A DNA stretch of 64,000 nt from an uncultured Bacilli bacterium (GCA_934148015.1 CAKPCU010000002.1:30672-94671), one strand, 5' to 3'. Shown: positions 45,626-63,143, counted from the stretch's first letter. Notes: generated by a model not told the origin, from the letters alone. Program-made: numbers and translations.

Positions 45626-46365
45626 TTATCTTCACCACTTTCTCTTTCTAAATAAGCAATTGAAACATTATCAGTTCCACCCCTTAAATTACTTTTTCTA
45701 ACTAATTTAACTATCTTTTCTTCTAATGATAAATCACTATTTAATACTTTTTCAATTTGTTCTTTAGTAAGCATATTAGTAAGTCCGTCACTACATAATA
45801 ATATAGCATCACTATTAATATCAACATCAAATATATCAACATCTATAGGGTTATTAGCTCCAAGAGCTCTCATAAGTACATTCTTTCTTGGATGATTAAC
45901 AGCTTCTTCTTTTGTTAATTCACCAGATTCTACTAATAAATTTACTAAAGTATGATCTTTAGTTACTTTGTATAGTACTTTTTTCTTCATTACAAAACCA
46001 GATGAATCACCAACGTTTCCAAATAATATATAATCATCTGTTATAACGGATAATACTAAAGTAGTACCCATTCCTTTACTTGCAGGAAATTCATCAGTAT
46101 ATTTAAAAATTGCATCATTAAGTTTAATAGCATTTTTTCTTATCCAACTAACAGCTTCTTCTTTAGTACCTATATCTTCTAAATTTTTAAATTCTTCTGT
46201 AAATCCATTAACTACTATAGACGATGCAACTTCTCCAGCCTTATGACCACCCATTCCATCTGCAACAATCATAAGATACTGCCCAGATAAATTTTTAACT
46301 ATCATTACTGAATCTTCATTATGAGTCCTAACTTTTCCAGTATCTGTTATGTAATATGCTTTCAT
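45622..46365 (-). CDS. stp: PP2C-family Ser/Thr phosphatase
   Basis: Motifs ADGMGGHKAGE, GTT and CSDGLTN. It overlaps the prkC start by 4 nt. Confidence 0.9.
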   Translation of the reverse strand: MKAYYITDTGKVRTHNEDSVMIVKNLSGQYLMIVADGMGGHKAGEVASSIVVNGFTEEFKNLEDIGTKEEAVSWIRKNAIKLNDAIFKYTDEFPASKGMGTTLVLSVITDDYILFGNVGDSSGFVMKKKVLYKVTKDHTLVNLLVESGELTKEEAVNHPRKNVLMRALGANNPIDVDIFDVDINSDAILLCSDGLTNMLTKEQIEKVLNSDLSLEEKIVKLVRKSNLRGGTDNVSIAYLERESGEDK

Positions 46366-46367
46366 AA

Positions 46368-47408
46368 TTATTTCTCCATTTCATTTATTTGTTCACTACG
46401 AAGCTGTCCACATGCTGCTGACACCTTTCTTCCAAATTCTCTTCTTATTGTTACATTTATACCTTGCATCTTTAATATATCATAAAACTGATCAATTGTC
46501 ACTTTACTACTAGCTTTAAATCCTATATTACTAGTTTCATTATATGGAATTAAATTAACATAACAATTTAAGTTCTTAAGCTTTGATGCTAATTCATAAG
46601 CACAATCTTTACTATCATTAATATCTTTTAATAATATATATTCAAAAGTAACACGTCTATTAGTTTCCTTTATATAATCTTTAACTGCATCCATTATATC
46701 ATTAATTTTATATGCTTTATTAATTGGCATTATTTTATTTCTTATTTCATCTGTTGGTGCATGAAGACTAATCGCTAAATTAACACCAAGCTTTTCTTTA
46801 GCAAATTCTCTTATTTTAGGAACAACTCCACAAGTTGACACAGTAATATGTCTAATACCTATATTAATTCCCTTAGGATCATTTATTATGTTAATAAACT
46901 TCATAACATTATCATAGTTATCAAATGGTTCACCAATGCCCATTAAAACAACATGACTTATTCTCATCTTTATATCTTCTTCTACTTTTAAAACTTGCAT
47001 AACAAGTTCATATGCATAAAGATTTCTTTTTTTCTTTAATCTTCCACTTTCACAAAATGAGCATCCCATATTACATCCGACTTGTGATGATACACATAAA
47101 CTATTACCATAATCATGCTTCATTAAAACAGCTTCTATCAATTTACCATCAAATAATTCAAATAAGTACTTTTTAACATCAACATCTTCTTGTTTTTTTA
47201 TTATTTTTAATTCACCCATACTAAAATTTTCTTTTAAATACTTTATTAAATCTTTTTTTAAATTTGTCATTAAATCAAAACTTTTAGCTCTTTTTACATA
47301 AAGCCAGTCAAACACTTGCCTAGCTCTAAACTTAGACTCACCAATTTCTTCAAAATAGTTTTGTAAATCTTCAAGTGAATAATTATATATATTGTTCACA
47401 AAAAACAC
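46368..47408 (-). CDS. rlmN: 23S rRNA/tRNA A-C2 methyltransferase RlmN (radical SAM)
   Basis: CNMGCSFCESG cluster and a C-terminal CGQL motif. Non-ATG start: GTG at 47408 or 47399. Confidence 0.9.
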   Translation of the reverse strand: MFFVNNIYNYSLEDLQNYFEEIGESKFRARQVFDWLYVKRAKSFDLMTNLKKDLIKYLKENFSMGELKIIKKQEDVDVKKYLFELFDGKLIEAVLMKHDYGNSLCVSSQVGCNMGCSFCESGRLKKKRNLYAYELVMQVLKVEEDIKMRISHVVLMGIGEPFDNYDNVMKFINIINDPKGINIGIRHITVSTCGVVPKIREFAKEKLGVNLAISLHAPTDEIRNKIMPINKAYKINDIMDAVKDYIKETNRRVTFEYILLKDINDSKDCAYELASKLKNLNCYVNLIPYNETSNIGFKASSKVTIDQFYDILKMQGINVTIRREFGRKVSAACGQLRSEQINEMEK

Positions 47409-47563: not shown

Positions 47564-47734
47564 ATGAAAAAAGATAATAAAAAAATAAAATGTGACGTAG
47601 AATCTTGCAAACATAATGATTGTGAATGTAAAAACTGCACTTTAGATGAAATAAAAGTAAGTGCACAAGGCGATAAAAAAGAAGCTTGTAAAAAAGAAAC
47701 AATCTGTGATAGCTACGAAGAAAAAAATAATTAA
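47564..47734 (+). CDS. Small Cys-rich DUF1540-like protein
   Basis: Not in the ORF track. Translation: MKKDNKKIKCDVESCKHNDCECKNCTLDEIKVSAQGDKKEACKKETICDSYEEKNN. RBS is GGAGGA. Confidence 0.6.
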   Translation: MKKDNKKIKCDVESCKHNDCECKNCTLDEIKVSAQGDKKEACKKETICDSYEEKNN

Positions 47735-47842: not shown

Positions 47843-47870
47843 AAAAAATGCAGAATATTAATTTCTGCAT
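47843..47870 (-). terminator. Rho-independent terminator closing the SipW/TasA-like locus
   Basis: Minus-strand reading: ATGCAGAA, a 7 nt loop, TTCTGCAT, then TTTTTT. Confidence 0.75.
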
Positions 47871-47905
47871 TGTATTTATTATTTCGACAAAATTTGACAT
47901 ATAAA

Positions 47906-49108
47906 TTATTTTTTTAAACTATTTTTACTAGCTATTATAACTGGTACAACCTTGCATGTTTTGTCTTTTGATACCATATTTATACTTGATGTATCATTAT
48001 CTATTTTAGCTAAACTATAAGCAAATGTACTATTATCATGTCCATCTAAAAAGTAACATGTATTACTAGCTAGATATAAAAATGTACTATTTTTAAATAC
48101 ATAAGAAGCATTATTATTAGAATTATTATCTAATATGGTAGATGCCCTTGTTTTATAATCTACTTTTCCAAGTATTAAATCTGAAAGTCCTTCTTTTTTT
48201 ATAATAGTATTATCTATATCAGTTGAAATAACTTTTAATACATCTTCTACACTTAATTTTCTAGTATTAGCACTCCAACTTGATATTATATTGTTATATA
48301 ACGAATCACTATTATAAAATGTATTTTCTAAATAATTATTATCAAAACTTGGTAATAATGTAACAGTATCATCTGCTATTTTATTTTTTGTATCAATAAC
48401 ATGAGTTTTAATACATGTACTACTTATGTTATTGCATGCTTTATTATCTTTAACATCATATAAAATAAGTTTACCAAGGTCATAGTTATGATCTAATTCA
48501 TTTTCATCATCTTCTATAACCTGCTCTGCAATTAAACTTATTCCAAGTTTTATTAATGGAGATGAATTATTTGTATCTTTTTGATATTGATAAGCCTTAT
48601 TTCCCCATAAACTATCTAATTTATCATCACCAGAGTCAAGTGGCCAAGAAACAGATATTTTAAACCTATTTTCTTCACCCTTTAGTAGTACATTATTTCT
48701 ATCTAGTCCAATATTTATATGAAATGGATAGTTATGTGCTATAACATCTTCTATATAATCTGATGTGGTATCTAATGATGATGTCATATTATCTTCATTT
48801 AGTATTTTAACATATTCTATTTTATATTTAATACTTGCATCAGAATCACCTTTATTATTTATTACTATTTCTTCTTTATTCGTTTCCATGCCAGGCTTTA
48901 CATCATCAAGTGATATTACTATATCTTTTGTTGCAACCTCTTCTCCTCTTTTAAACTCTATATACCATGATTTTACAGTAACATCAGTATCTACCTTTGA
49001 TAATCCGCTATATGCAAACCAAGCAAGAGTAACTGAAATAAATGAAATAACCATAAATGTAATAGACATAATGCTAAGTCTTATATTAACTTTTCTTCTT
49101 TTATCCAT
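47906..49108 (-). CDS. Secreted TasA/camelysin-like protein (400 aa) with a SipW-cognate-type signal
   Basis: The N-terminal helix ends in VTLAWFAYS. It is followed by ISLDDVKPGMETNKEEIVINNKGDSDASIKYKI, resembling the TasA-type LKPGD...N.G strand pattern. Confidence 0.6.
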   Translation of the reverse strand: MDKRRKVNIRLSIMSITFMVISFISVTLAWFAYSGLSKVDTDVTVKSWYIEFKRGEEVATKDIVISLDDVKPGMETNKEEIVINNKGDSDASIKYKIEYVKILNEDNMTSSLDTTSDYIEDVIAHNYPFHINIGLDRNNVLLKGEENRFKISVSWPLDSGDDKLDSLWGNKAYQYQKDTNNSSPLIKLGISLIAEQVIEDDENELDHNYDLGKLILYDVKDNKACNNISSTCIKTHVIDTKNKIADDTVTLLPSFDNNYLENTFYNSDSLYNNIISSWSANTRKLSVEDVLKVISTDIDNTIIKKEGLSDLILGKVDYKTRASTILDNNSNNNASYVFKNSTFLYLASNTCYFLDGHDNSTFAYSLAKIDNDTSSINMVSKDKTCKVVPVIIASKNSLKK

Positions 49109-49136: not shown

Positions 49137-49697
49137 TTATTTACTTCTTCTTTTTTCTTCTTTTTCTAACATAAATGACAATATCTCTGAACCTATTACA
49201 TAAAATAATGGTATTATTACGAATATTAACATTCCATATTTAGTACTAACTATTTTATAAATAAGTGATAATAATTTTACTTTATATACTACAACACCAT
49301 ATAATTGATCTTGATAAACTAATGGATCTTCTACTAAGTTAGCAGTACCTTTAGTTCTAAATACATATTTACCCTTTTCATCTTTTTCTATTCCAACAAC
49401 TTTATGTGTTATAACTTTATCTCTAAAGCTTCCAGCTCTACCTAAATAACTAATAGTATCTCCTACTTTTATTTTAGAAGCATCAGTTTCTTTTGATATT
49501 AAAACATCTCCTATATCATAAGTAGGCTTCATACTTCCAGATACAACGGTAAACATTCTAAGATTGAAAAATGATAATTTATTATTACTAAATCTTTGTA
49601 ATACAACTACTATTACAAATAGTATAACTAAAAGTGCTATAACAAAGTTTAAAACACTTTTAACTATTTTTAATCCTTTATTTTCCTTCTTTTCCAT
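49137..49697 (-). CDS. sipW: Signal peptidase I, SipW/Sec11 (ER-archaeal) type
   Basis: 186 aa: N-terminal TM helix, VVSGSMKPTYDIGD (Ser), ITHKVVG (His), TKGTANLVEDP, and a C-terminal TM helix. Confidence 0.8.
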   Translation of the reverse strand: MEKKENKGLKIVKSVLNFVIALLVILFVIVVVLQRFSNNKLSFFNLRMFTVVSGSMKPTYDIGDVLISKETDASKIKVGDTISYLGRAGSFRDKVITHKVVGIEKDEKGKYVFRTKGTANLVEDPLVYQDQLYGVVVYKVKLLSLIYKIVSTKYGMLIFVIIPLFYVIGSEILSFMLEKEEKRRSK

Positions 49698-49700
49698 AAA

Positions 49701-50831
49701 TTATAAATAATCCTTTATCCTTTCCATATATTCATCCATTTCTTTTTTAAACTTTCTTTTTACCGCATCACTACCACTAGACTGTATTTTCTTTTGTTTC
49801 TTTATTTCATCTGAAATAAATCTCATAAACTCATTTTCATCTATTTTAATACCAAGAGACATTAGTAAAGAAATTATTTTATCTATTTCTTCTGCACACA
49901 TAAGTATTGCATATTTAGATAATTTTTCTTTTTGCTCTTTCTTTGATGCAGCGATAGAATCTAAAACAAAATAATTCATTAAGAAAGATCTATCTAAAAA
50001 AACTTTAATTATATTATTTCCATCAGTATCAAAATTTTCTTTTAAATTCTTAGTATCATTTAAATAATAATTTCTTAAATAATCCCATAGTTTAACAGCT
50101 ATTTGGAAGTTAGGATTCTTAAGTATAATATTTGTCTTTTTAACTTGTGAATTAATAAGTGTTATATGAGCTTTATCTAAAGCTTTAACCATTTCACTTC
50201 TCTGCCAACTTGTAATATATTCTTTTACCCTTTTTATTCTTTGTTTAATATTTTCTATTTCTTCTTCTATATTTTTATTAGTATCATCATTAGGTATTGA
50301 AGTAGAAGTTATTTTAAGTGATATATCTACTTTTTCTTTTAACGTAGTAGTATCAGCTTTATATTCTAATACTTTCTTATTATTTACTTCTAGCTCATTA
50401 AGCAAATCTTCTTTTTCTAATATAAATTTATTCATTGTATATATAAGAGAATATAAAAATCTATTTTCATATATATTATAAGTTTCTTCATTTCTTATAT
50501 CTAGTATTTTTTTAGGCTCTATATCTTTTGTTTTTTCATTTAATTTTGAAATGTAATTAGTATGTCTTGCTAAATCTTTTACACTTGCAACAGTTATCTT
50601 TTTGGCTTTTTCAACTTTAACTACCATTTCTTCTTGAACTAAAGCCATTTTTGGATTTCTAACTATTATATCAATAAAAGGACAAGCTTTTTCCATCTCA
50701 TCCATCCATTCAAAAGAAAGGGAATCTCCTAAAAAGTCAGATTTAAAGTGCATATCAGAATTAGTATTTTTCAAAAAAACTTTTGAATTTTCATTTAATG
50801 TTTCATCAACTAAGTTTTCTAATTTAGCCAT
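49701..50831 (-). CDS. Cytoplasmic partner of the AAA+ protein; McrC-N/DUF2357-like region, no PD-(D/E)xK nuclease motif found
   Basis: 376 aa. ETYNIYENRFLYSLIYTM resembles the ENRF(L/V)K element of McrC/DUF2357 proteins. The gene is tightly packed (gaps of 18 and 3 nt). Confidence 0.45.
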   Translation of the reverse strand: MAKLENLVDETLNENSKVFLKNTNSDMHFKSDFLGDSLSFEWMDEMEKACPFIDIIVRNPKMALVQEEMVVKVEKAKKITVASVKDLARHTNYISKLNEKTKDIEPKKILDIRNEETYNIYENRFLYSLIYTMNKFILEKEDLLNELEVNNKKVLEYKADTTTLKEKVDISLKITSTSIPNDDTNKNIEEEIENIKQRIKRVKEYITSWQRSEMVKALDKAHITLINSQVKKTNIILKNPNFQIAVKLWDYLRNYYLNDTKNLKENFDTDGNNIIKVFLDRSFLMNYFVLDSIAASKKEQKEKLSKYAILMCAEEIDKIISLLMSLGIKIDENEFMRFISDEIKKQKKIQSSGSDAVKRKFKKEMDEYMERIKDYL

Positions 50832-50849
50832 TTATATCCCTTCCCTTTA

Positions 50850-52358
50850 TTATATACTCTTCTTTAATGTTTCTAGGTAAGATATACATTCTTTCATTAC
50901 ACCTTTACCTACCCTTTTATTTAAATATGATATAAAAGGATCTATTTCATCTCTAATAAATGAAACACTTAATTGATCAAATTTTCTAAGTATTTTCTTA
51001 GCTAAAAAGTAATCAATTCCTTCTATTTCACTACCACCACATCCAACATATACTGGAACGAAAGTATTAAGTTGTTTCATAATACGATTACCAAATGATA
51101 TTCTAAAGTGCTTTATTACATAATCATCCATTTCACTAACTAAATCTAAGTTTGCTTTTGAAACAGGATGTTTTTCAATTGCATCTTGAAATAAACTTTC
51201 TAAATAACTAGAATTTATTTCTAATGCTTCTTGATCTCTGCATTCAAAAGGATCTACCTTAGTATTTATATCAAGTGGCATAGCACGGTCATAAACTTTA
51301 TCTGTTACCATGAATGTTGAATCATCATTATTTATAGTACCAATATACCAAAGGTTTCCTGGTAATTTAAGTTTTCCATTTGGAATTTTCTTTGGATCTT
51401 TTTCCCAACTACTTGGTACTATATCAATTATCCATTCATCTCTATTAGGCATTTCAAGGATTGATAAAAGGTCCGCAAAGTAATATTCTACTCTAGCTAA
51501 GTTCATTTCATCTAGTATGATTGTATGAACATTATCATCAAACGATGCTGTGTATATCTCACCTAATGCCTTTGTTTCAGTAAACTTCTTAGTAAACTCA
51601 TTAAAGTATCCTAAAAAGTCTGATCTATCTCTCCAAGATGGTTCAACAGAAACAACACAAGAATCTACTTTAACAAACTTACCCCAAGCGTACGCAAGTG
51701 ATGTTTTACCAGTACCAGAAATACCTTGTAATATAATTAACTTACCACAAGCTAGTCCTGCAAAAAATGGTCTTAATATATCAAAATCATAATATAATTT
51801 TAATTTACTTGCAGCAAAACATCTAAAGTCATCTATTATTTCGGTTAAACTTTCACTATTGTTATATTTTTTAACTTTATAATTAGCTAATGCTTCATCA
51901 ATAGAAACAAGCTTTGGAAATCTTATATTTGGATCTCCTTTTATTTCATCTGAAACGTCATCAGCTTCTTCATCTTCTTTTTCCTCTTCATTAGGATTAA
52001 TACCTAACTGAGAAACTTTCATTGCCATTATCTTTTCTTTTTCTTTCATAAGTTGTTTAACTTGTTCATTTAAATTACCAATTTCATTTAATAATTCATC
52101 TTTATTTAATTTTCTATTAGCTTTTCTAATCATCTTTTTAATAAATAAAACTATAAGTCCAATTACTAATAAAACAATTATAACAAGAAAAGCAATACCT
52201 ATGTATAAAAAAGACTTTTCTCCTTTACTAAAGCTTCCACTATAACTATCTATTATTTTAGCATAAGCTTTAAAATCAAACATCTTTTTTATACCGCCAA
52301 ACAGCCCTTCAAAAAAGACAGAAAGAAATTCATAAAAGAATCTTAAAAACGTATTCAT
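50850..52358 (-). CDS. Membrane-tethered McrB-family (AAA_5/COG1401-like) AAA+ NTPase
   Basis: TM helix FLYIGIAFLVIIVLLVIGLIVLFI, then a coiled/acidic linker. Walker A is LQGISGTGKTS. McrB-type elements are ILDEMNLARVEYYFADLLSILE and WYIGTINNDDSTFMVTDKVYDRAMPL. Confidence 0.7.
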   Translation of the reverse strand: MNTFLRFFYEFLSVFFEGLFGGIKKMFDFKAYAKIIDSYSGSFSKGEKSFLYIGIAFLVIIVLLVIGLIVLFIKKMIRKANRKLNKDELLNEIGNLNEQVKQLMKEKEKIMAMKVSQLGINPNEEEKEDEEADDVSDEIKGDPNIRFPKLVSIDEALANYKVKKYNNSESLTEIIDDFRCFAASKLKLYYDFDILRPFFAGLACGKLIILQGISGTGKTSLAYAWGKFVKVDSCVVSVEPSWRDRSDFLGYFNEFTKKFTETKALGEIYTASFDDNVHTIILDEMNLARVEYYFADLLSILEMPNRDEWIIDIVPSSWEKDPKKIPNGKLKLPGNLWYIGTINNDDSTFMVTDKVYDRAMPLDINTKVDPFECRDQEALEINSSYLESLFQDAIEKHPVSKANLDLVSEMDDYVIKHFRISFGNRIMKQLNTFVPVYVGCGGSEIEGIDYFLAKKILRKFDQLSVSFIRDEIDPFISYLNKRVGKGVMKECISYLETLKKSI

Positions 52359-54367
52359 TATTCTCCCCCCACGTAATTTCCAGTTTTATTTAAAATATCA
52401 TCAAAGACAACTCTTTCTAATAATTCTTCTGGAATTGAATCATATATTACAGAAGATACATTTTTCTTAAGACCTACAAATATGTATTTAACTAAATATA
52501 AATCTTTCTTTTCTTTTTCATTTAAAGATTTTTCTTCTTCTAAACTTATTGCAAACTTAAAACCTATCTTCATTAATTTTTTAATTATTTTCTTATTTTC
52601 TCTAAATTCATTTTCTCTAATTAAAATAATTATACTATTTTTAACAAATTCATCATTTAGTTTTTCAATTATTTTATTTAGTTTATTTTCTTTTTCATAT
52701 AAGGTATTAGGTAAATATATAATGTATTTATCTTTAAAGTTAAATGAGAACATATTTTTAACTAATTTACTTAATAATAAGCTAACTAGTATAATTATTT
52801 TATCTTCTGCAATTACACCTTCACTATATGTTTTATCAACAATATAATCACTATAAGCTTTACTAAAAGTTATATTATGTTCTAGATTAATACCATGTAA
52901 ATCCTTTTTAGAAGTAATACCTTTAATGTTTAGCTCAAACATACCAGTTTCTAATTTTTCTAAACTTTGTTTAATCATACCAGTATGTATTTTTTGTAAC
53001 CTTATAATTCTATTTACATTTATTAGTATATCTTCTACTTCAGAATAATTTTTTATATATTTTAGTATCTCACTTTTATATAATTCTCTTTTAGCTTTTA
53101 TATCCATATCTACTAAACTGTAATGATCTAAACTAATAATAACATTAAATATAGATAAATACTTTTCTACTTTAAGTCCATACTTTAAGTCAGTACCCTT
53201 ATATTTTTTTATTAAATTAATAGCTTCTTCTTTCATTATATCTTTAGTTTTCTTAATAGCATTACGACCATTATACATCGTATTAACATCACCAGAATAA
53301 TTGTAATACTTTCCATCTATATAAGAATTTAATAATGACTCTTTAATAGTTGCTTCATTAACTTTTAGCTTCTTATCAGTATCTAAAATACTAATTATTT
53401 CATCTAATTCTAACTTTTTAATATAAATAGCTTTTTCTAAAATACTATTAAACTTTTTCTTTCTTTCATTTAGCATTTCTAAATTACTTTCTATAATAGA
53501 TGCATCATCTTCTTCATCCTTTTTATCTTCTAACGCTACTTTTTTTATAGACTCTTTATTATCATCAATAGAAGTTTCTGCAATCTTTAAATAAGTATTA
53601 TCAAGTTCTGTTTCATCAACATTTACCATTCTAAAGAACATAGTTTTATCCAAATCTTCAGGATTAGGTCTTGCCTCTATCTCTAAATTAAGATTATTAA
53701 CAGCCTCATCTTCTTCATCTATTTCTTTTTTATTATCTACTTTTAATTCTTTAATTATTTCTTCCTTGATAGGTTTTTTATCTTCTTTTATTTTTATATT
53801 AGATAATTTATCTTTTATTTTTTTTATAAAATCTTTTCTATTTGGTGATACTTTATCAATTAATTTATTAATCTTATTATCATTTGAATTAAGATTAGCT
53901 ACATAAACTATTAAAAGTAAAAGTATAATTATAAATGGATTAAATAAAGTCTTCTTAACAAATCCAAAATGAGGAAGTACTTTAACTACTTTACCAACTA
54001 TTTGTTTTTTACTTATTGCATCATCTTTAGTATTATTAGCATCACCTTTAGTAACGTAAGTATTCTTATAAGCTTCAACTACTCTATGTGTTATAAAATT
54101 CTTACCTTTTTTATACGTAACTACATCATTTAATGAGATATCATCTGTATATTTAACTATTATCCAGTCTCCTATATTTATTTCATTTTTCATACTACCT
54201 GTTTGAACTTCAAACAATGAATATCCAAAGAAGCTAGCATAATCATTTCCTAACACTTTTACTTCTATATTGTTATATATAAATACAATTAGAACAAATC
54301 CTAGTAAAAATATTAAAATATCTAAAATAACGTTTAACACTAACTCTTTAACACTTTTTTTGCTCAT
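52358..54367 (-). CDS. SipW-type signal peptidase I fused to a roughly 500 aa C-terminal extension
   Basis: N-terminal TM helix, QTGSMKNEINIGD (Ser), ITHRVVEAY (His), TKGDANNTKDD, a second TM helix (FIIILLLLIVYVANL), then a Lys/Glu-rich linker and a roughly 200 aa alpha/beta-looking C-terminal domain. Its stop overlaps the next ATG (TAATG). Confidence 0.75.
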   Translation of the reverse strand: MSKKSVKELVLNVILDILIFLLGFVLIVFIYNNIEVKVLGNDYASFFGYSLFEVQTGSMKNEINIGDWIIVKYTDDISLNDVVTYKKGKNFITHRVVEAYKNTYVTKGDANNTKDDAISKKQIVGKVVKVLPHFGFVKKTLFNPFIIILLLLIVYVANLNSNDNKINKLIDKVSPNRKDFIKKIKDKLSNIKIKEDKKPIKEEIIKELKVDNKKEIDEEDEAVNNLNLEIEARPNPEDLDKTMFFRMVNVDETELDNTYLKIAETSIDDNKESIKKVALEDKKDEEDDASIIESNLEMLNERKKKFNSILEKAIYIKKLELDEIISILDTDKKLKVNEATIKESLLNSYIDGKYYNYSGDVNTMYNGRNAIKKTKDIMKEEAINLIKKYKGTDLKYGLKVEKYLSIFNVIISLDHYSLVDMDIKAKRELYKSEILKYIKNYSEVEDILINVNRIIRLQKIHTGMIKQSLEKLETGMFELNIKGITSKKDLHGINLEHNITFSKAYSDYIVDKTYSEGVIAEDKIIILVSLLLSKLVKNMFSFNFKDKYIIYLPNTLYEKENKLNKIIEKLNDEFVKNSIIILIRENEFRENKKIIKKLMKIGFKFAISLEEEKSLNEKEKKDLYLVKYIFVGLKKNVSSVIYDSIPEELLERVVFDDILNKTGNYVGGE

Positions 54368-54500: not shown

Positions 54501-55031
54501 TTAAGCCTCTTCTTTTGAACCATATTTTATTTCTACAATTAAAGCATATAATTCATAAATAAATATTAAAAATGATGGAAGTAAAACTATAAATAAGAAT
54601 CCCCATTTAGACTCTATTACTGATAAAAACGTACCAACATCATGATATACCTTTCCAGGTGTTCCAACAACGTAATTAATAGAATAAGTTGAACCATTTT
54701 CATACGTAATAGCTTGTTCTTGTTCATATATTTCACCAATCTTGCCATAGTCTATGCTAACAGATCCTTTAGCATCTACTTTATACGCAAAAACATTATC
54801 ACCAACTTTTAAGTTTTCTAACTTTTGTTTTTGAACTAAAACTAAATCTCCTTTTTTATAATCATTAGTAGAAATAGCTTCTTTTAAAATAACTAATGTT
54901 TTATCCCCAAACTCAGTAAGTCCATAATCATTATAATTTAATAATAACACTGTCATAAAAATAACAAATCCAAAGAATACAACTGCTAGTATTCCTAAAA
55001 ATATATTTTTAATAAGTTTTAATGCTTTCAT
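54501..55031 (-). CDS. SipW-fold paralogue lacking the catalytic Ser and His (pseudo-peptidase)
   Basis: Same N-terminal and C-terminal TM architecture and length as sipW. However, SGSM is replaced by LKEAIS, THKV by DYGKI, and TKGxAN by YENGST. Start at MKALKLI follows an AGGAGG RBS. Confidence 0.65.
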   Translation of the reverse strand: MKALKLIKNIFLGILAVVFFGFVIFMTVLLLNYNDYGLTEFGDKTLVILKEAISTNDYKKGDLVLVQKQKLENLKVGDNVFAYKVDAKGSVSIDYGKIGEIYEQEQAITYENGSTYSINYVVGTPGKVYHDVGTFLSVIESKWGFLFIVLLPSFLIFIYELYALIVEIKYGSKEEA

Positions 55032-55136
55032 AATACCTCCTATACTACTATCCAAAATTATATCATACTTTTAAAACCTTATCAATAATAATAATTTAAT
55101 AATTTAAATCTATAAATTTATAATATTTTATAATTG

Positions 55137-56012
55137 TCAATTATTTAAATTTATCTTAAAATCATTTTTATCATAGGTTTTACCTAAATCTGTTTTATAA
55201 AAAACTATCTTAATATTTTTATTACTATCTAAATCAAATGCAATTTTATTAATAAAATCATTAGAATCTTTAGATTCTTCTTTTAAATTGCTAGTCATAT
55301 CTACTCTTAATTTATCTGAGTCAAAATAAAGTGTATAAGTCTTTTTACTATCTAAAAGATTAGATACTATAACCTCTACTTTTTCATCGTAATTATTACA
55401 ATTAAGTGTAACATCATCATTAATATTTAGCTGCCTTGAAAGAGAAAACTTTCCCTTTAAAATCTTTTTATAAGGACTTGTTGATGTAACTATTATATTA
55501 ACTTCAGCATCATTTATCTTAGTGTTATCTAAGCTTACTAGATTAAAATAAAGTTTTGCTTCACTTTTATTATCAAGCCATTCATATCCATTTTTAATAC
55601 AATCATCAAGATTATTAATATCTGTTATAACATCAGAGGTAGTATTAAAACATACTTTAGATGAAGATAACGTGCCATTATAAGTACTATCATTATCATT
55701 TATAATACATTTATAATTACTATTATTAGTAGAACACTCTACTTTATAAGATATATCATAATCAGTTATTAATGAATCATTTAAATAGTTTTTAATATCA
55801 AAATATGTATTACTACCATCCCAAGCATTATTAACATTAGATACTTCTTCTAAATCAAGACTATTACTAGAAAAGTAAAAATCTTTAGACTTATAATAAT
55901 AGTTTAAAACGTTATTATAAGCATACTTAGCAAAGGATACACCATATGTTAAAACAAGTGTAAGTACTAATATTAATATAATCATAATTCTTATCTTGCC
56001 ACTTTTTTTCAT
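55137..56012 (-). CDS. Secreted protein (291 aa) with a SipW-cognate-type signal
   Basis: The N-terminal helix ends in VSFAKYAYN. It shares the NAWDGS element with the giant protein (NTWDGS). Confidence 0.55.
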   Translation of the reverse strand: MKKSGKIRIMIILILVLTLVLTYGVSFAKYAYNNVLNYYYKSKDFYFSSNSLDLEEVSNVNNAWDGSNTYFDIKNYLNDSLITDYDISYKVECSTNNSNYKCIINDNDSTYNGTLSSSKVCFNTTSDVITDINNLDDCIKNGYEWLDNKSEAKLYFNLVSLDNTKINDAEVNIIVTSTSPYKKILKGKFSLSRQLNINDDVTLNCNNYDEKVEVIVSNLLDSKKTYTLYFDSDKLRVDMTSNLKEESKDSNDFINKIAFDLDSNKNIKIVFYKTDLGKTYDKNDFKINLNN

Positions 56013-56019
56013 AATTCAC

Positions 56020-56562
56020 CTACTTTTGCCAGCTTTTTATTTCAATATCAATATAATCAGTTATATTTGAATAACTACTATCATTATAATCTTGTGGAAA
56101 ACTAATATTTAATCTATAATTATCATTAATTTTTTCATTATAAACCATTTCAAATACATCTGAATTACATACTAAAGCATTTTCTTCATTTCTACTATAT
56201 GTTTCATCACAAGTTAAAACTAAATTACTTTTATTACTCTCTTCTTTATATAAATTAATATTTAATGGAATAAAATGATAAGTTTTTATAGTTATTGTAT
56301 AATTTAAAGTAACATCACTACTATAATTTTCATTATTATTAGAAACAGTAAAGGTATAATCTTTTAAATCACCTGGTTTTAACTCATCTAACGAAATATT
56401 TATATTATCTGTTTTCTTCCCGTCAAAAACAAATGATGCTATTTTTTCATCATCACTTGTAAGTGATGCTTTAGAATTAAATTTAGAGTATGTTATACCT
56501 GATATAAATAAAGTACTAACTATTAAAATTACTAAAATAATTATTTTCTTTTTCATAATCAT
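56020..56562 (-). CDS. Small TasA/camelysin-like secreted protein (180 aa)
   Basis: The helix ends in ITYSKFNSK. It is followed by ISLDELKPGDLKDYTFTVSNNNE, a TasA-like pattern. Confidence 0.65.
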   Translation of the reverse strand: MIMKKKIIILVILIVSTLFISGITYSKFNSKASLTSDDEKIASFVFDGKKTDNINISLDELKPGDLKDYTFTVSNNNENYSSDVTLNYTITIKTYHFIPLNINLYKEESNKSNLVLTCDETYSRNEENALVCNSDVFEMVYNEKINDNYRLNISFPQDYNDSSYSNITDYIDIEIKSWQK

Positions 56563-56569
56563 ACTCCTT

Positions 56570-59500
56570 TTATTTTGTTATAAATGCTTTATCTGTAAAA
56601 CTTATCATTTTATCATTATCGTATAAGTAAAATCTTAACTTATACAAATTATAATCTAAACTATTAGGTTTTAAATTAATAGTTATCTTATTATTAAAAT
56701 CATTTTTATTATCTACTAATAAATACATATTATCTTTATATAGTGTTAAATTATCAGATGTATAATCATTTATATTTATTTGTTTATAACTTACATCTAA
56801 TGCTGATAATACACTTTTTTTAAGTAATGATACATATATTTTAGGATTTGATAATTTACCCTTATACAATATATTATAATTCATACTGTAATTATCTAAA
56901 GTTTTCTTAATTATCTTTTCGTTACTATCTTGTATATCAAATGAGTAATTATGAGTATTCTTCTTATTTGTAACATTTAAAGGAATATTTATAGAATCTA
57001 TAGATAATATGTTATCTAATACTCCATCAAATGATAAATAAGCTTCTATATCAAAGTAGTATTTACCCTCATCTAAAATGCTATTATCTACTTTAGTTAT
57101 AATATTAAGAACTTTATTTAAAGTATCACTACTATTTGATAAATTAATATTTATTACATCTTTATTCATAGAATATTTATTATCATCTATCATAAATTTA
57201 ATGTTCTTTAAATACTTATGATCTACTATATTTTTATTTGAATCTAATACTTTTATCTTTAATCCCCATACCATGTTAAGTAAATTACTATCTATAATCT
57301 TATTTTTATTTATATAGCTATATACTTTTGATAAATTAATATCTATATTATTTTCAGAGTTACTATTATACATAACTTCATCACTATAATTAGATTTTAT
57401 TTGAGCATTAGAAGTCATATTATTGTATATATTTATTTCTTTTAAACTATTCTTTAAAGAACCTCTAACTTCGTTTTTCTTATTATCTAAAACTGAAACT
57501 GATAATATTAAACCGCTAATTTCTTCATCTATATTACAATGAGAAAAATCTACAGTTATTTTATAGGTATCATCTATATTTTTAGTTACATCTTTTTTAA
57601 ATACTTCTTTAGAAGATTTTCCAATTAAACTAAATAAGTCAAATGAATATAAGTAATATGAATCTTTTAATAAATAGTCATCTTCTTTTACATTATAAGT
57701 ATACATACTATTATTTAAATTCAAAGTTATTTTAGTATTAACAGGTAATATTTTATTTGACTTTAAGTAAAATGTATCATTATCATTAAATTTATAATCT
57801 GATTTATAAGTATATTTTAATAAAATACTAGAATTACTTGTTATATTTAATTTATCGTATGACTCATCATAGTTATTTAATATGTATAATCCTTCACACT
57901 TATAACCCTCATACAAAATTAAGTCTGATGAAGCATAAGATGCAATACCTATATTATCTAAAGCTTTAATATAAATAATAGAACTTTTATTATTTATAGT
58001 TATCTTATCTTTATAATTAGTCCATAAACTATCATCTATTAAATCTAGTTTTTCTTTATTTAAGACCCCTTCTGAAACATAATACTTAATAGATTTAACA
58101 CCAGACATTTCATCTTTAGCATTTACAAAAATGTCTAAATTTTCATTTATAAAATATATAGATGGATTATCATTTAAAGTATTTAAAGTTTTATTATTAT
58201 AACTTATCTCTATATCACATCCACTTAAATCAAGTACTAATATATCAGAATTAATATACGTAATATTATCATTATAATCAACTATTTTAGCATATATAAT
58301 GTAATACCCTTCTTCACTAATTTTCTTTGATGATGTAAATAACTGCCAGTCAGTTATATTGTTTAATTCATCATAAGATAATGCATTCTTATCTTTTTTT
58401 ATGTAATAGTATATTTCTTTAACCTTATTTAAATTATCATCTTCTTTAATATTAAACGTAATATCATTACTTACTAAAACTTCATTTAAGCTGTAGCTTA
58501 CATTATTCCAAGAATAAGAATTAATATTAATGCTCGCTAAAGGCTTATTAATATCATCGGTATATAATATTGGATAAGAATCATCTTCATATACCCAAAC
58601 ACTATTAATGTTATTTTTTATGTTATCTAAATCTGTAAATTCACTAAAGCCTAGTGTGTTAACTAAAAAGTTTTTATTTTTTAAATTAGAAGTATAAGTT
58701 ATTTTACCTGTATAATTACCTGAAAATGCATATTTACTTGATGAAGCGTATGAATTTGTTATGCTAATAGATGAAGATAATATGTTTAAAATAAAGTAAG
58801 AATCAGTTGCATTAAAAGTATTTTTTATAGAAAAGTTATTTGTATTATTTATATTTCCTATAATACCAGATGAGTTTTCTGCACTTATCTCTCCTGCGTT
58901 ATAAGTATTTGATATTAAACCAGATGCATTATTTAAGTAAGATATAATACCTGATGCTATCATTTTACTATTTATAGAGCCTGTATTATATGAATTATTA
59001 ATATTTATTTTTTCCCTTCCTAATGAAACTATACCAGATGAATAATTATAACCATATACATATGCCTTATTAATAGTATTTAAAATATTAGTATTACTAG
59101 CTTCTGAAGCAATTCCAGATGAAATACCAAGTTTATATTTTACTTTGTATTTTAAATTAGTTATTTTAATATCTTCTATCGTGTTTAATTTATATAAAAT
59201 AGATAAATTACTAGCACTACTATCTACATTTATACTAAAGTTACTACTATCTATACTATTATTATTTATAGATATACTAGATAAGCTAGAAAAGTTATCT
59301 ATTACACCTTCTAAAGTAATACTTTCTATATCATAGTAAGATAAGTTAATATTACTTAAATCTATATTTGATGAAGTACTATCTTTTGATAATAAAATAT
59401 CATCTAAACTTATTTCATTTTCTTCATAAGTATTATTATCACTACCAATTACATATCCACCATAAATAGTATTTTCTATTAAACCATTATCTACATTTGA

Positions 59501-60118
59501 TGCAATACCACCAGTTATATTTCCACCATAAATAAGTGAATTTTGTACATATAAATCTTTAACAGTTCCATTTAAATTAGTAAATAATCCAAGATATTTA
59601 GTATCTTTTTTAGTTATATAAGCACCGTATATAGTATGAGAATTACCATTAAATGTACCCTTAAAATTATTAATTGAATCAAATAAGTTAATACTACCAA
59701 CTTTATTTGTCATATCACTAGAAGAATAATAATTAGATGAATATTTATCTACAAAATAAGTATTACCATCTAATATATATTTAATTAAATTATCTTCATA
59801 TTTAAATGTACCTTTATTTATTATAATATCATTACTTAACTCAAAATAAGTATTACTATAACTTGTAGTTTTAAGCATATTACTAAAATAAGCTAACTCT
59901 GATGCATTAGAAATAATAAAAGGATCATCCTGACTTCCTGAACCACTTCTATAACTAGAAGAAATAGAGCCATCCCAAGTATTATCAATGTTTAAAGGAT
60001 TTCTATTTTTTTGTCTTGCAAAAGTCGCTATTGAAACAGATGATAGTATCAAAATAAAAATTGCTATAAGTATTATATATATTTTATTTTTTTTACTTTT
60101 AAGGTTAAACTTTTTCAT
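56570..60118 (-). CDS. Giant secreted protein (1182 aa) with GLUG-like repeats and Ig-like C-terminal modules; no LPXTG motif
   Basis: The N-terminal helix ends in IATFARQKN and is followed by NTWDGS...GSQDDPFIISNASELAYF. Repeats include GGIASNVDNGLIENTIYGGYV, SGIASEASNTNILNTINKAYVYG and SGIVSL...NNSYNTGSI. Confidence 0.7.
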   Translation of the reverse strand: MKKFNLKSKKNKIYIILIAIFILILSSVSIATFARQKNRNPLNIDNTWDGSISSSYRSGSGSQDDPFIISNASELAYFSNMLKTTSYSNTYFELSNDIIINKGTFKYEDNLIKYILDGNTYFVDKYSSNYYSSSDMTNKVGSINLFDSINNFKGTFNGNSHTIYGAYITKKDTKYLGLFTNLNGTVKDLYVQNSLIYGGNITGGIASNVDNGLIENTIYGGYVIGSDNNTYEENEISLDDILLSKDSTSSNIDLSNINLSYYDIESITLEGVIDNFSSLSSISINNNSIDSSNFSINVDSSASNLSILYKLNTIEDIKITNLKYKVKYKLGISSGIASEASNTNILNTINKAYVYGYNYSSGIVSLGREKININNSYNTGSINSKMIASGIISYLNNASGLISNTYNAGEISAENSSGIIGNINNTNNFSIKNTFNATDSYFILNILSSSISITNSYASSSKYAFSGNYTGKITYTSNLKNKNFLVNTLGFSEFTDLDNIKNNINSVWVYEDDSYPILYTDDINKPLASININSYSWNNVSYSLNEVLVSNDITFNIKEDDNLNKVKEIYYYIKKDKNALSYDELNNITDWQLFTSSKKISEEGYYIIYAKIVDYNDNITYINSDILVLDLSGCDIEISYNNKTLNTLNDNPSIYFINENLDIFVNAKDEMSGVKSIKYYVSEGVLNKEKLDLIDDSLWTNYKDKITINNKSSIIYIKALDNIGIASYASSDLILYEGYKCEGLYILNNYDESYDKLNITSNSSILLKYTYKSDYKFNDNDTFYLKSNKILPVNTKITLNLNNSMYTYNVKEDDYLLKDSYYLYSFDLFSLIGKSSKEVFKKDVTKNIDDTYKITVDFSHCNIDEEISGLILSVSVLDNKKNEVRGSLKNSLKEINIYNNMTSNAQIKSNYSDEVMYNSNSENNIDINLSKVYSYINKNKIIDSNLLNMVWGLKIKVLDSNKNIVDHKYLKNIKFMIDDNKYSMNKDVININLSNSSDTLNKVLNIITKVDNSILDEGKYYFDIEAYLSFDGVLDNILSIDSINIPLNVTNKKNTHNYSFDIQDSNEKIIKKTLDNYSMNYNILYKGKLSNPKIYVSLLKKSVLSALDVSYKQININDYTSDNLTLYKDNMYLLVDNKNDFNNKITINLKPNSLDYNLYKLRFYLYDNDKMISFTDKAFITK

Positions 60119-60239: not shown

Positions 60240-61865
60240 TTATTTCTTAATGCTTTCCTTACTTAGTATTTTTTCAACTTCTGTCATAAACCATATTTTA
60301 TTTGCAGAAGTACTACTATTATTAATTTTATTAATTCTTAATATAAGTAATATTTTATTTAATAAGTTATCTAAATTATCTGGATCCAACTCTTCTAAAG
60401 TTAACTTAATATTACTAAGTCTATACTTATTAATTATTATTTTAGCTATATCAGTATCAGAAAATACTAAAAGACCATTAACTATTATATTAGTAGGATT
60501 CATAGCATATAAATCAAACTTTTCACTTAATTCTTCTATTTCTTCATAAGTACTTAAATTATATACTCTTTGAATAGTTATCTTTTTAAAGTAATCATAA
60601 CTATAATATAAATTTAATACATCAGATATTGAAATAGTATTATTTAATATTTGAAGAACTTTATCTTTAAAATATGCTTTATCATATTTTTGATATAATT
60701 CATATAATTCTTTAGCTATACATACTGAATTAATCTTCATTTGTTTTAAATTAGAATCACTTTTAAATTCAAAGAATCCAGGTCTTCCACCAAATATCTT
60801 TTTATTTAATTTATAAAGTTCTTTTTCTTTAGCTTCTATTTTATCTACTACTTCTTTTAATTCTTTATATTCAGTTTTTTCTTTAGCATCTACTTCTTTT
60901 TTATACTCTTTTTTAAAGTCTTCAAAAAGAGGTAAAAACATAGCATAATTACTATACTCTATAACATTTAATTTTAATTTTTCTAAAATATCACATATCT
61001 TATTTAATTTATCTTTATCATTAAAATCATTTTCATCATAAAATAACGATTGTACTGCATTTGTCTTAACTTTACTATTTTCTAAATATTCATTTATATT
61101 TATTTTACCAGTCTTTGCTAAATTAGCTATATCATATATATTTTCTTTATTAGCAAAATTAAGTTCTATGTATGCTGATTTTAATTTTTCTAAACAATCT
61201 TGATAGTTTTTAATATTATTATTAACCATTACTTCTTTTTGTAATTTTATAATATAACTATTAAATTTTCTATGATTATCTTTTATTAATTTTCTAAAGT
61301 TCAACTCTATATGACTTATAATATCAGGATTTACCCAGTATATTTGCTCAAATATTTCTGATACTTTTTCATATGATAAGCTCTTTTTATTTCTAACGTC
61401 TAAAAAAGAAGACATATATTCATGTACATAGCATGTATATTTAAAATCATCACTTGTTAACTTAATACCTGCTAGTTCAAACTTATCTAAAAAGCCGTTT
61501 ATTATTTCATTTAATGATTTAAAATTAAATGTATAATAATTGTTTAATCTATATAGTAAATCATCAAAACCCATCTTTTCAAAATAACTATTTGATGGAT
61601 TAAGTAAAAATTTTACGTTTTCTAAATTTATTAGAGTATCATTTAATTTATCAAGGTTTTCTCTATCATCTTTTATTTTAATAGCTCTGTTTTTTGCTAA
61701 TATATAATTTCTAACACTATCTTTATATTCGTTATATTTATTTTCCATATCTTTTATATTAGCATTAAATTTTTTCTTATTAGTTTTTGTTTTTGTTGGA
61801 AGTGTTGATAAAAGCGTTTTCTTTGCATTAATATCTTTTACGATAAAGTCTAAAAAGTTATTCAT
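60240..61865 (-). CDS. Cytoplasmic helical protein (541 aa), unknown function
   Basis: No signal peptide or TM helix. Lys/Glu/Asn-rich with coiled-coil-like segments. ATG at 61865 is preferred over the ORF-track GTG at 61874. Confidence 0.6.
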   Translation of the reverse strand: MNNFLDFIVKDINAKKTLLSTLPTKTKTNKKKFNANIKDMENKYNEYKDSVRNYILAKNRAIKIKDDRENLDKLNDTLINLENVKFLLNPSNSYFEKMGFDDLLYRLNNYYTFNFKSLNEIINGFLDKFELAGIKLTSDDFKYTCYVHEYMSSFLDVRNKKSLSYEKVSEIFEQIYWVNPDIISHIELNFRKLIKDNHRKFNSYIIKLQKEVMVNNNIKNYQDCLEKLKSAYIELNFANKENIYDIANLAKTGKININEYLENSKVKTNAVQSLFYDENDFNDKDKLNKICDILEKLKLNVIEYSNYAMFLPLFEDFKKEYKKEVDAKEKTEYKELKEVVDKIEAKEKELYKLNKKIFGGRPGFFEFKSDSNLKQMKINSVCIAKELYELYQKYDKAYFKDKVLQILNNTISISDVLNLYYSYDYFKKITIQRVYNLSTYEEIEELSEKFDLYAMNPTNIIVNGLLVFSDTDIAKIIINKYRLSNIKLTLEELDPDNLDNLLNKILLILRINKINNSSTSANKIWFMTEVEKILSKESIKK

Positions 61866-62010
61866 TTTTATCACTTTCCTTTTCTTCTATATCAAACTTA
61901 TTATCATCCAAAAACTGTAAGAAATCTACTATATCTTGATAAACTTTTATTAGATCTTCCAAGCTTAATTTTGAAAGATCAAATCCCACTTTATTATTCT
62001 CCATTTTCAT
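61858..62010 (-). CDS. Small acidic protein (50 aa)
   Basis: Not in the ORF track. Translation: MKMENNKVGFDLSKLSLEDLIKVYQDIVDFLQFLDDNKFDIEEKESDKNE. Its stop overlaps the next ATG (ATGAATAA). Confidence 0.45.
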   Translation of the reverse strand: MKMENNKVGFDLSKLSLEDLIKVYQDIVDFLQFLDDNKFDIEEKESDKNE

Positions 62011-62028
62011 AATCTATACCTTCCCTTT

Positions 62029-63117
62029 TTAATTAAATGATGTATATCCTGTTGTATCTTTTATAAAATTAATTGAAATAGCAAGTTCAGCCCCAGATGA
62101 ATCTGTCTCTAGACTATCTATATCTTGTCCTTCTATCCATACATAGACTCTCATTTTAGTAACTCCATTTGGAATTGAAAATAACGGAGTATCAAATTCT
62201 GTATCTGTAATAGTTTGTTGTTCTTCAAAATAATTCATATCCATTGCAGAAGAGCCTGATACTGTATCTTTTACATATATTGGTCCTCCAGCTTTTTTAT
62301 AAGCATATGTTGGAAACTTTTCGCCATCCTTTAAATTTATACCATATTCTTTAGCTTTTTCTTTTGACATATTAGTATGAATTCTACTATTAGGTTCAAA
62401 TATAATTGATCTGCAATTATTATTACAAGATAAATTTTGTATTGTTCTATAATCAGTATCTAAAGGTGCACTACCTACTTTAACAAATCCTATTCTAGTT
62501 GAATTAACAAGACCTTGCATTTCCTCTGTTTCTCCATCATCTATGGTAACTTCTGTTCCAAAGTCTAAAAATAAATTATCATCTACAGGAGAACCTGTAT
62601 CATTCTTAACAAATAAATCAAATGCTATAAATGAGCTGTAAGGATATATTCCTTTTTCTGTTAATAATTTAGTATTAACAAATCCATTTTTTTGATTTTT
62701 ATTTCTGTACATAACCCCTGCACTAGAATATATTTCAAATTTTGATTTATTACTATCTCTAACACCTAGTGTAGATACTGGAGTAAGTCCCATCGCAGCC
62801 CACTGACTAGTATTATTAGGATATGTATTTTTTAAGTTATTTATAAGCGTTTCTCTAGATATTTCAACATAATTATCATAGTTAATAGCATCAAAAGATA
62901 TTTGAAGACCACTATTTTTTGTTACTATCATATTAAACGTTTTAACCTTAACATTTAAGTTTGTTGAAAACCATGCATATGTTGCTGCAATTAAAGTAAT
63001 TCCTAAAAAAACAATACTTGTAATTAAAAGAGGGCGATTTTTCTTATGAAGTAATACTCTTTCTTTTACTTTGTTTTTTCTTTTAGCTCTGCTTTTAACA
63101 GTCTTAGTATTTTTCAT
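62029..63117 (-). CDS. Secreted protein with a SipW-cognate-type signal; paralogue of 63191 to beyond 64000 (candidate fibre subunit)
   Basis: The helix ends in ATYAWFSTN. The C-terminus KMRVYVWIEGQDIDSLETDSSGAELAISINF matches its neighbour. Start at MKNTKTV follows the RBS AAAGGTGGTGA. Confidence 0.6.
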   Translation of the reverse strand: MKNTKTVKSRAKRKNKVKERVLLHKKNRPLLITSIVFLGITLIAATYAWFSTNLNVKVKTFNMIVTKNSGLQISFDAINYDNYVEISRETLINNLKNTYPNNTSQWAAMGLTPVSTLGVRDSNKSKFEIYSSAGVMYRNKNQKNGFVNTKLLTEKGIYPYSSFIAFDLFVKNDTGSPVDDNLFLDFGTEVTIDDGETEEMQGLVNSTRIGFVKVGSAPLDTDYRTIQNLSCNNNCRSIIFEPNSRIHTNMSKEKAKEYGINLKDGEKFPTYAYKKAGGPIYVKDTVSGSSAMDMNYFEEQQTITDTEFDTPLFSIPNGVTKMRVYVWIEGQDIDSLETDSSGAELAISINFIKDTTGYTSFN

Positions 63118-63143
63118 ATAATCACCACCTTTTAAATACAAAC

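Follow-up and report, generated by a model that had tools for sequence, protein, structure and literature searches.

A predicted membrane-tethered McrB-like GTPase and its nuclease-less McrC-like partner in a conserved SipW-associated operon of uncultured Bacilli

McrBC is the textbook GTP-dependent restriction motor, and the locus described here is a clear example of such a motor in which both DNA-facing parts are missing and which is bound to a membrane. The locus lies in a 64,000-nucleotide (nt) stretch of DNA from an uncultured Bacilli bacterium (GCA_934148015.1 CAKPCU010000002.1:30672-94671), hereafter the window, whose positions serve as coordinates throughout; the genes of interest are on the minus strand. 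A gene for a 502-residue membrane-tethered McrB-like guanosine triphosphatase (GTPase; 50850..52358), identified from its open reading frame (ORF), hhalign, a profile search of the PDB and PADLOC, is followed directly, after a spacer of 18 base pairs (bp), by a gene for a 376-residue McrC-like partner (49701..50831), identified from its ORF, Pfam family PF09823 and AlphaFold model m207bb443e88b. An earlier reading of the DNA (the sequence-only reading) had placed the two ORFs at exactly these positions and had proposed a repurposed McrBC-like machine; both ORFs are there, and every motif string it named was recovered from their translations. The source databases attach no names to any of these proteins. 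In hundreds of uncultured Bacilli from gut and rumen, strong purifying selection has kept the pair next to genes for signal peptidases and surface proteins. With a probability of roughly 0.6, we consider the pair to be a GTP-driven cytoplasmic module that is coupled to the processing or assembly of a SipW-dependent surface fibre and does not serve restriction. That the locus is an envelope-associated, non-restriction module of the kind named CoCoPALM by Bell et al. (eLife 2024, PMC11090510) appears to us very probable.

The GTPase was assigned to the McrB family by its AAA+ core (residues 187-404; 51147..51800), which was delimited by phmmer, alignments, hhalign and the PDB profile search. In an alignment of 31 homologs with 70-87% identity, the Walker A motif GISGTGKTS (G212-S220; 51699-51725), the Walker B residues D283 and E284 (51501-51518), the NNDD signature N343-N-D-D346 (51321-51332) and R358 are invariant. 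The McrB-type box ILDEMNLARVEYYFADLLS (residues 281-299) and the downstream element WYIGTINNDDSTFMVTDKVYDRAMPL (residues 337-362), both singled out earlier together with Walker A, are thereby borne out. A Pfam scan of the GTPase gave no significant AAA_5 match. A phmmer search against PDB sequences returned E. coli McrB alone, and the family profile, run against all PDB sequences, returned only the McrB entries 6hz4, 6ut6 and 7vsr (E about 7e-5). MoxR-, RavA- or dynein-type AAA+ proteins were rejected as an assignment, no such entry appearing in that search up to E = 10. Alignment of the GTPase family to E. coli EcoK McrB by hhalign extended across the GTPase core with a probability of 96.4% and an E of 1.4e-9, the identity being 22%. 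The McrB-family assignment of the sequence-only reading is therefore upheld.

The closest annotated relatives of the GTPase were found by tblastn on plasmids and align over the GTPase domain only (35-40% identity, E about 1e-52). They are 'AAA family ATPases' of roughly 800 residues that contain a coiled coil and are encoded among large AAA/helicase-like, hypothetical and DUF2357 genes in the order helicase-x-GTPase-DUF2357, a gene order that we infer to match that of the CoCoNuT systems of Bell et al. (PMC11090510). In the signature alignment, INNDDST of the window protein stands against ANHDETT of the plasmid proteins and MNTADRS of E. coli McrB, and the aligned coiled-coil plasmid GTPases are 35-36% identical to the window GTPase as against 22% for EcoK McrB. 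The signature fits the NxD branch, defined as 'NxD followed by E or a second D', as read from the motif and not from a repeat of the authors' tree; the same NNDD string can also be read as NxxD in a gapless alignment to NTAD of EcoK. In PADLOC, the best match was the defence candidate PDC-M26A (E 2.5e-37), a model of about 720 positions to which the GTPase aligns in the C-terminal half, and the canonical McrB model gave no match. By tblastn, neither the plasmid nor the phage collection yielded a full-length copy. A GTPase-domain relative with 33.7% identity over residues 159-459 (E 2e-44) is encoded on a 'Bacteriophage sp.' contig from human faeces that carries no annotation (MT835511.1, 40007-41104).

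Where McrB has its DNA-reading domain, the window protein has a different arrangement. It begins with an amphipathic/hydrophobic helix of the pattern MNTFxRFFYEF..F..G (residues 1-24; 52287..52358), delimited in the 31-homolog alignment, in which M1, N2, T3, F4, R6, F7, Y9, E10, F11, F15, G18 and G22 are invariant. The pattern is also kept in the GTPases of the distant loci L082, L083 and L090, which are 45-55% identical. A transmembrane helix is predicted at residues 50-73 (52140..52211) from Kyte-Doolittle values and Hessa free energies. This segment, FLYIGIAFLVIIVLLVIGLIVLFI, is the hydrophobic stretch of the sequence-only reading, and by these measures it is a genuine transmembrane helix: over residues 55-73 the Kyte-Doolittle values average 3.67 and the Hessa free energies add up to -7.4 kcal/mol. 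Its flanks carry a net charge of +5 on the C-terminal side (KKMIRKANRK) and 0 on the N-terminal side, which places the GTPase domain on the cytoplasmic side. The prediction is accordingly of a membrane protein with a single strong transmembrane helix and a cytoplasmic catalytic domain. The helix is followed by a coiled coil ending in an invariant AMKVSQLG and by an acidic linker (residues 85-143; 51930..52106). As the 31 homologs show, the coiled coil (residues 85-120) is conserved and the linker, with the acidic stretch EEEKEDEEADDVSDE (residues 124-138), varies in length and sequence; the coiled and acidic region noted earlier is thus present as described. Pfam and NCBIfam gave no DNA-binding family match in residues 1-143, which consist of the helix, the transmembrane helix, the coiled coil and the linker, in agreement with the earlier claim that the DNA reader has been replaced.

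The same N-terminal region raises the possibility of a divisome-associated factor, in which an FtsB-like transmembrane helix and coiled coil would bring the GTPase to the septum, and an envelope structure at the division site would be made or remodelled by the operon. By eye, the end of the coiled coil, AMKVSQLGxxPxEE, resembles the C-terminal motif of DivIC and FtsB. HHpred similarity of the CoCoPALM N-terminal fusion to FtsB was reported by Bell et al. (PMC11090510). Here, E. coli FtsB gave no significant hhalign match to the GTPase family (probability 0.4%), and the Pfam scan of the GTPase gave no DivIC match. By the predicted topology the coiled coil is cytoplasmic, on the other side of the membrane from that of FtsB. 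Moreover, the cluster is without division genes, both among the window ORFs and in 80 related loci, which were fetched for synteny out of at least 564 stretches encoding relatives in a scan of one genome per GTDB species. A role in division is therefore regarded as very improbable.

The second protein was investigated for its relation to McrC and for a nuclease. Pfam DUF2357 (PF09823), the N-terminal domain of McrC, matched residues 53-155 of the partner with an E of 6.4e-12 and 45.7 bits against a cut-off of 23.3. The ENRF-containing segment ETYNIYENRFLYSLI (residues 116-130), which had been called reminiscent of McrC and DUF2357, lies within this match and is vindicated by it. No other family, including any nuclease, was detected in the partner with Pfam, NCBIfam, PADLOC or PDB sequences, and no transmembrane or hydrophobic segment was found in it. 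Many of the proteins matched in the partner search have 360-385 residues, and many others have 450-1150; the latter align only over window residues of about 30-295 and then continue into long extensions. In ten of these long relatives Pfam found DUF2357 and no nuclease. Across 72 diverse homologs only E74, L87, Y121, E122, N123, N234 and W249 are invariant, the final 120 or so residues are not conserved, and neither a D...(D/E)xK pattern nor a conserved acidic-lysine triad was found.

A first AlphaFold run on the partner with 31 close homologs gave a predicted local distance difference test score (pLDDT) of 58.8 and only noise in Foldseek, and was superseded by a run with the 72 diverse sequences (m207bb443e88b; pLDDT 83.4, predicted template modelling score (pTM) 0.54). 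In the latter model an N-terminal alpha/beta domain is followed by a helix (residues 121-145), a beta-hairpin (151-177) and a long helix (182-220). From residue 182 to residue 375 the model consists of helices, with the exception of a single five-residue strand, and a conserved PxKKTNxILKNPNF..LW motif occupies residues 229-249. Because its C-terminal half is helical, the model has no room for the alpha/beta core of a PD-(D/E)xK nuclease. The partner is thus predicted to be without a nuclease fold, as the sequence-only reading had supposed from its C-terminal half. The pair is not a chance occurrence, since the GTPase matches more than 8000 clusters at 90% identity and the partner, in an exhaustive profile search, 1651 clusters at 50% identity.

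What had escaped the sequence-only reading, which was right about the pair, is the conserved SipW/TasA-like envelope operon around it, from which a function can be suggested. The cluster comprises at least 11 genes, all on the same strand, in the order u370-u544-big1182-p180-p291-sip184-sip669-GTPase-partner-sip186-sec400. Three of them encode SipW-family proteins with two transmembrane segments each, as in SipW; two are predicted to be active peptidases and one is a paralog without the catalytic serine. The first, sip186 (186 residues; 49137..49697), starts 3 bp past the partner gene and is a predicted active signal peptidase I of the SipW, or endoplasmic reticulum/archaeal, type, matching TIGR02228 of NCBIfam with an E of 5.6e-22 and 78.3 bits (cut-off 51.85). 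Its SGSMxP, TH and DP motifs are kept in 69 orthologs, and the Ser/His/Asp motifs of sip186 and sip669 in 69-71. The second, sip669 (669 residues; 52358..54367), is a fusion in which a first transmembrane segment, a SipW-type peptidase domain and a second transmembrane segment (residues 14-157) precede a Lys/Glu-rich linker and a C-terminal domain (residues 338-654). Its N-terminal 157 residues match TIGR02228 with an E of 3.8e-19 and 69.1 bits, and its GSM, THR and KGD motifs are conserved in orthologs. The two transmembrane segments imply that the 500-residue extension is cytoplasmic. The third, sip184 (184 residues; 54501..55055), is related to the sip186 family by hhalign (96.5%, E 9.6e-10); the SGSM motif is missing from it, in a region that is poorly conserved. 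From this homology and the missing serine motif, sip184 is predicted to be a catalytically dead pseudo-peptidase.

The gene for sip669 adjoins that of the GTPase, its stop codon overlapping the GTPase start codon by 1 nt. Its C-terminal domain (52406-53356) matched no known family in Pfam; in the distant locus L083 it occurs as a separate gene for 325 residues (708-1685; hhalign 99.2%), directly upstream of the GTPase. Both the overlap and the stand-alone gene hint at a physical coupling of the GTPase and sip669. The idea that sip669 ends in a degenerate EAL domain was rejected: its last 80 or so residues align locally to the DDFG region of an EAL protein from the distant locus L082, but without significance (hhalign 0.3%).

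At least five proteins of the cluster are predicted to be secreted with TasA/camelysin-like signal peptides. The final gene of the unit, sec400 (400 residues; 47906..49108), has a conserved SipW-type signal (..TLAWFAYSG..) and is syntenic in 72 loci. The small secreted proteins p291 and p180 (291 and 180 residues; together 55137..56562) are related over the first 90 residues (hhalign 95.7%), and related N-terminal regions are common to p180, p291 and sec400. The large secreted surface protein big1182 (1182 residues; 56570..60118), a candidate adhesin by its ORF and synteny, is syntenic in 43 loci with 30-50% identity, variable length and a weak OmpL47-type domain match. Further upstream are the conserved genes u544 (544 residues, cytoplasmic) and u370 (370 residues, secreted, signal ..ATYAWFST..), which together span 60240..63141, were found in 33 and 34 loci, respectively, and had no match in Pfam, NCBIfam or PADLOC. 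No nuclease was detectable with the same three collections in any of the 11 cluster proteins.

The spacing within sip669-GTPase-partner-sip186-sec400 is -1, 18, 3 and 28 bp. Terminator-like hairpins follow u544 (60233-60206), sip184 (54488-54464) and sec400 (47871-47847), and the best promoter-like site lies ahead of sip184 (55085-55057). The first of these hairpins suggests that u544 and u370 form a transcription unit of their own. The u544 protein itself (60240-61874) is helical and Lys/Glu-rich, is 54-62% identical across its 33 loci, and may be a further cytoplasmic component.

The 80 related loci all belong to uncultured Bacilli of the gut or rumen, whose metagenome-assembled genomes bear the label 'Tenericutes' or 'Mollicutes' and include Candidatus Coprovivens. 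By tblastn, the order big1182-p180-p291-sip184-sip669-GTPase-partner-sip186-sec400 is kept in essentially every locus that is long enough. Of all genes in the operon, that of the GTPase is conserved best, with 60-75% identity to the window protein, followed by sip186 (50-68%), the partner (42-58%), sip669 (33-60%) and the secreted proteins (27-50%); a pattern in which the GTPase evolves most slowly and the secreted proteins fastest is typical of surface-structure machines. Four distant loci reached through the partner search (L082, L083, L090 and L091), whose GTPases are 45-55% identical, also have SipW-like genes beside the pair, and in L090 a four-gene module is embedded among the core genes topA, trmFO, hslVU and hisS. 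A gene of the EAL-domain family of cyclic di-GMP phosphodiesterases (4087-4896) is part of the CoCoPALM-like cluster in the distant locus L082, where the GTPase follows four genes downstream of it; this hints at second-messenger control.

The distribution bears on the question whether the pair belongs to a membrane-linked anti-phage or abortive-infection system, a CoCoNuT-like branch in which infection would be sensed by the pair and countered by the envelope proteins or by an unrecognised effector. The McrBC ancestry of the pair, its plasmid-borne closest annotated relatives with their CoCoNuT-like gene order, the PDC-M26A match and the GTPase-domain relative on a human-gut phage contig all speak for it. 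On the other hand, neither the pair nor the neighbouring proteins contain a recognisable nuclease, HEPN domain or other effector, and nuclease-less McrC homologs of CoCoNuT systems are always accompanied by another nuclease (Bell et al., PMC11090510). A gene order that stays the same over hundreds of species, together with a highly conserved GTPase, is unlike the patchy pattern and fast turnover of defence islands; plasmid and phage records hold no full-length copy; and the L090 module sits among core genes. A defence system is accordingly considered improbable.

In McrBC, the N-terminal domain of McrC plugs the McrB ring. In the structures of Nirwan 2019 and Niu 2020, as far as these are summarised in PMC11090510, McrB forms a hexameric ring and insertion of McrC stimulates GTP hydrolysis. 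By analogy, the window GTPase would form a hexameric ring beneath the membrane on six coiled-coil tethers, and the partner would insert in the ring and stimulate hydrolysis. The pair would then be the nucleoside triphosphatase (NTPase) core of an McrBC derivative recruited from DNA restriction to cell-envelope biogenesis. From the genomic context, the GTP cycle may be coupled to the processing of SipW-dependent subunits and to their assembly or anchoring in a TasA-like fibre or pilus, with the transmembrane and N-terminal segments of the GTPase and the cytoplasmic domain of sip669 as the possible route of coupling. The logic would be akin to that of the type IV pilus trio of ATPase, membrane platform and prepilin peptidase, without homology to it.

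The unusual make-up of the SipW proteins could also point to a regulatory checkpoint instead of a motor. In that case the pair would be a nucleotide-dependent switch that gates the SipW peptidase or the release of surface proteins, maybe in response to a cytoplasmic signal, for example cyclic di-GMP, and would do no mechanical work on the fibre. This is suggested by the fusion of a SipW peptidase to a sizeable cytoplasmic domain, whose translation is coupled to that of the GTPase, and by the conservation of a dead SipW paralog, typical of regulatory pseudo-enzymes. The EAL-domain gene of L082 also fits, as does the fact that the best local alignment of the sip669 C-terminus to that EAL protein, if not significant, lies on the DDFG region of the latter. 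McrB-type AAA+ rings, however, are mechano-enzymes in all characterised cases, the EAL similarity lacks significance, and the cytoplasmic domain of sip669 has no Pfam match. The switch overlaps with the motor and sequence hardly separates the two; a pure switch is thought unlikely, albeit less so than a defence system.

Several observations weigh against the GTP-driven fibre module preferred here. The hexamer, the use of GTP and the insertion of the partner are extrapolated from distant relatives, EcoK McrB being only 22% identical. Homology of the partner to McrC comes from the Pfam match alone, as an hhalign comparison of its family with E. coli McrC did not reach significance, and Foldseek of the partner models against the PDB gave nothing below E 1e-3, neither McrC nor a nuclease. 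The Foldseek null is uninformative, given the elongated, multi-domain shape of the model (pTM 0.54). The N-terminal helix of the GTPase (residues 1-24) is below the hydrophobicity threshold for a transmembrane segment and may lie inside or outside the cell. On the side of the substrates, ten of 43 p180 orthologs match Peptidase_M73 (PF12389, camelysin/TasA), weakly (best E 1e-5), and the p180-family profile matched no solved TasA structure. No operon protein has a characterised homolog closer than SipW. Finally, TasA-type fibres in Bacillus are not known to need any NTPase for their assembly, and an energy requirement would therefore not be expected a priori.

If the GTPase pair does power or gate the assembly of a fibre, it would represent an unrecognised class of envelope machinery and would give a reason why TasA-like fibres, which are thought to self-assemble, have an NTPase in these lineages. 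It would also be a sign that abundant lineages of the human gut, for which no cultured model exists, carry a conserved surface organelle that may serve in interaction with the host. In the widest form of this proposal, CoCoPALM would be a fourth bacterial machine for pilus or fibre biogenesis beside the chaperone-usher, sortase and type IV systems: a tethered, McrBC-derived GTPase ring plugged by a nuclease-less McrC, in which GTP hydrolysis drives or times SipW cleavage and donor-strand polymerisation of TasA-like subunits, as a core envelope organelle of uncultured, reduced-genome gut Bacilli. We put this forward tentatively, as an idea with somewhat less than even odds.

Some further observations concern the flanks of the operon. 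The window is colinear, at 98.7% identity, with a contig from a metagenome-assembled genome of the same species (L001) from 62358 down to 47893, and the two diverge completely just past the sec400 terminator (window 47847-47906). Downstream, the window holds the usual Bacillota trio of rlmN, a PP2C phosphatase and a PASTA Ser/Thr kinase (43850-47408, minus strand), genes that are missing from all 80 related loci. The break at the end of the operon reflects a rearrangement between strains or else a join made in assembly. Although related genomes are labelled 'Tenericutes', the PASTA domains suggest peptidoglycan synthesis in this organism. In the 497-bp gap between sec400 and rlmN, a Cys-rich ORF of 56 residues (MKKDNKKIKCDVESCKHNDCECKNC...; 47564-47734) lies on the opposite, plus strand, bordered by the hairpin after sec400 (47871-47847) and a second one (47771-47747).

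How does the locus compare with known systems? The survey of McrBC systems by Bell et al. (PMC11090510) names CoCoPALM in two sentences and defers it to a future paper. It describes an NxD-branch GTPase fused to an FtsB-like transmembrane helix and coiled coil, signal-peptidase-family genes nearby and a coiled coil in the McrC homolog as well, with 'likely pilus assembly' as the function. No follow-up paper was found up to August 2026, and the text supplements of the survey contain no CoCoPALM entries. The window locus has an NxD(D/E)-branch GTPase with an N-terminal transmembrane helix and coiled coil, and a McrC homolog without a nuclease in which long helices (121-145 and 182-220) flank a beta-hairpin in the AlphaFold model. 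Signal-peptidase genes adjoin the pair, three of the SipW family in the window, and the association is kept in the 80 close and the four distant loci. On account of the signal-peptidase, coiled-coil and NxD(D/E) features the locus was filed as CoCoPALM, a membership that these predicted features make highly likely. Nothing contradicting it was found, the published description being two sentences without gene lists. The idea of a repurposed machine therefore stands insofar as DNA reader and nuclease are both gone; its novelty is lower than supposed, the architecture having already been named in print. The class has had a name and no published analysis, and the locus supplies a concrete and complete parts list whose operon-level anatomy appears to go beyond the published description. 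Absent from the latter are the cluster of 11 or more genes, the inactive SipW paralog, the SipW peptidase with its fused cytoplasmic domain, the TasA-type signals of five proteins and the invariant N-terminal helix.

With the CoCoNuT systems (CnuB/CnuC), the window pair shares the GTPase sub-clade, to judge from the 35-40% GTPase-domain identity to plasmid-borne coiled-coil GTPases, and the motifs LQGISGTGKTSL, LDEMNL.R.E.YFA and N-x-D-(D/E); the McrC homolog of CoCoNuT also often lacks an active PD-(D/E)xK domain. Unlike CoCoNuT, the pair has no associated HEPN or other nuclease, helicase or RNA-binding domain, its GTPase is membrane-anchored, its neighbours are envelope proteins, and its distribution looks core-like instead of island-like. 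In EcoKMcrBC (6hz4, 6ut6, 7vsr), too, a DUF2357 partner of like orientation comes after the GTPase, and Walker A, Walker B, the signature Asn/Asp motif and the Arg after the signature are conserved. In place of its DNA-binding domain the window GTPase has a membrane anchor, and in place of the nuclease domain of McrC the partner has helices. The locus is thus outside canonical McrB, as it lacks the DNA-binding domain, outside canonical McrC, as it lacks the nuclease, and outside CoCoNuT, as it lacks an accompanying nuclease.

The TapA-SipW-TasA operon of Bacillus and the SipW-BsaABC operon of Clostridium perfringens resemble the cluster in having a dedicated SipW of the endoplasmic reticulum/archaeal type and several secreted proteins. 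Their signal peptides have an aromatic-rich motif past the hydrophobic core, as here, and the 180-residue protein of the cluster (p180) is weakly camelysin/TasA-like. ('McrB' in a C. perfringens BsaA paper refers to an E. coli strain genotype only.) Those operons have no NTPase, whereas here a cytoplasmic GTPase module is the best-conserved component and three SipW paralogs are present, one inactive and one fused to a cytoplasmic domain. The type IV pilus and type II secretion systems (PilB, PilC, PilD) have no component homologous to those of the window: SipW is a type I peptidase and not a class III prepilin peptidase, and the NTPase is an AAA+ GTPase of the McrB type and not a PilB/GspE ATPase. 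The likeness to them is one of analogy, and consists of a cytoplasmic NTPase, proposed to be hexameric here, a dedicated leader peptidase and several major and minor subunits with clustered genes.

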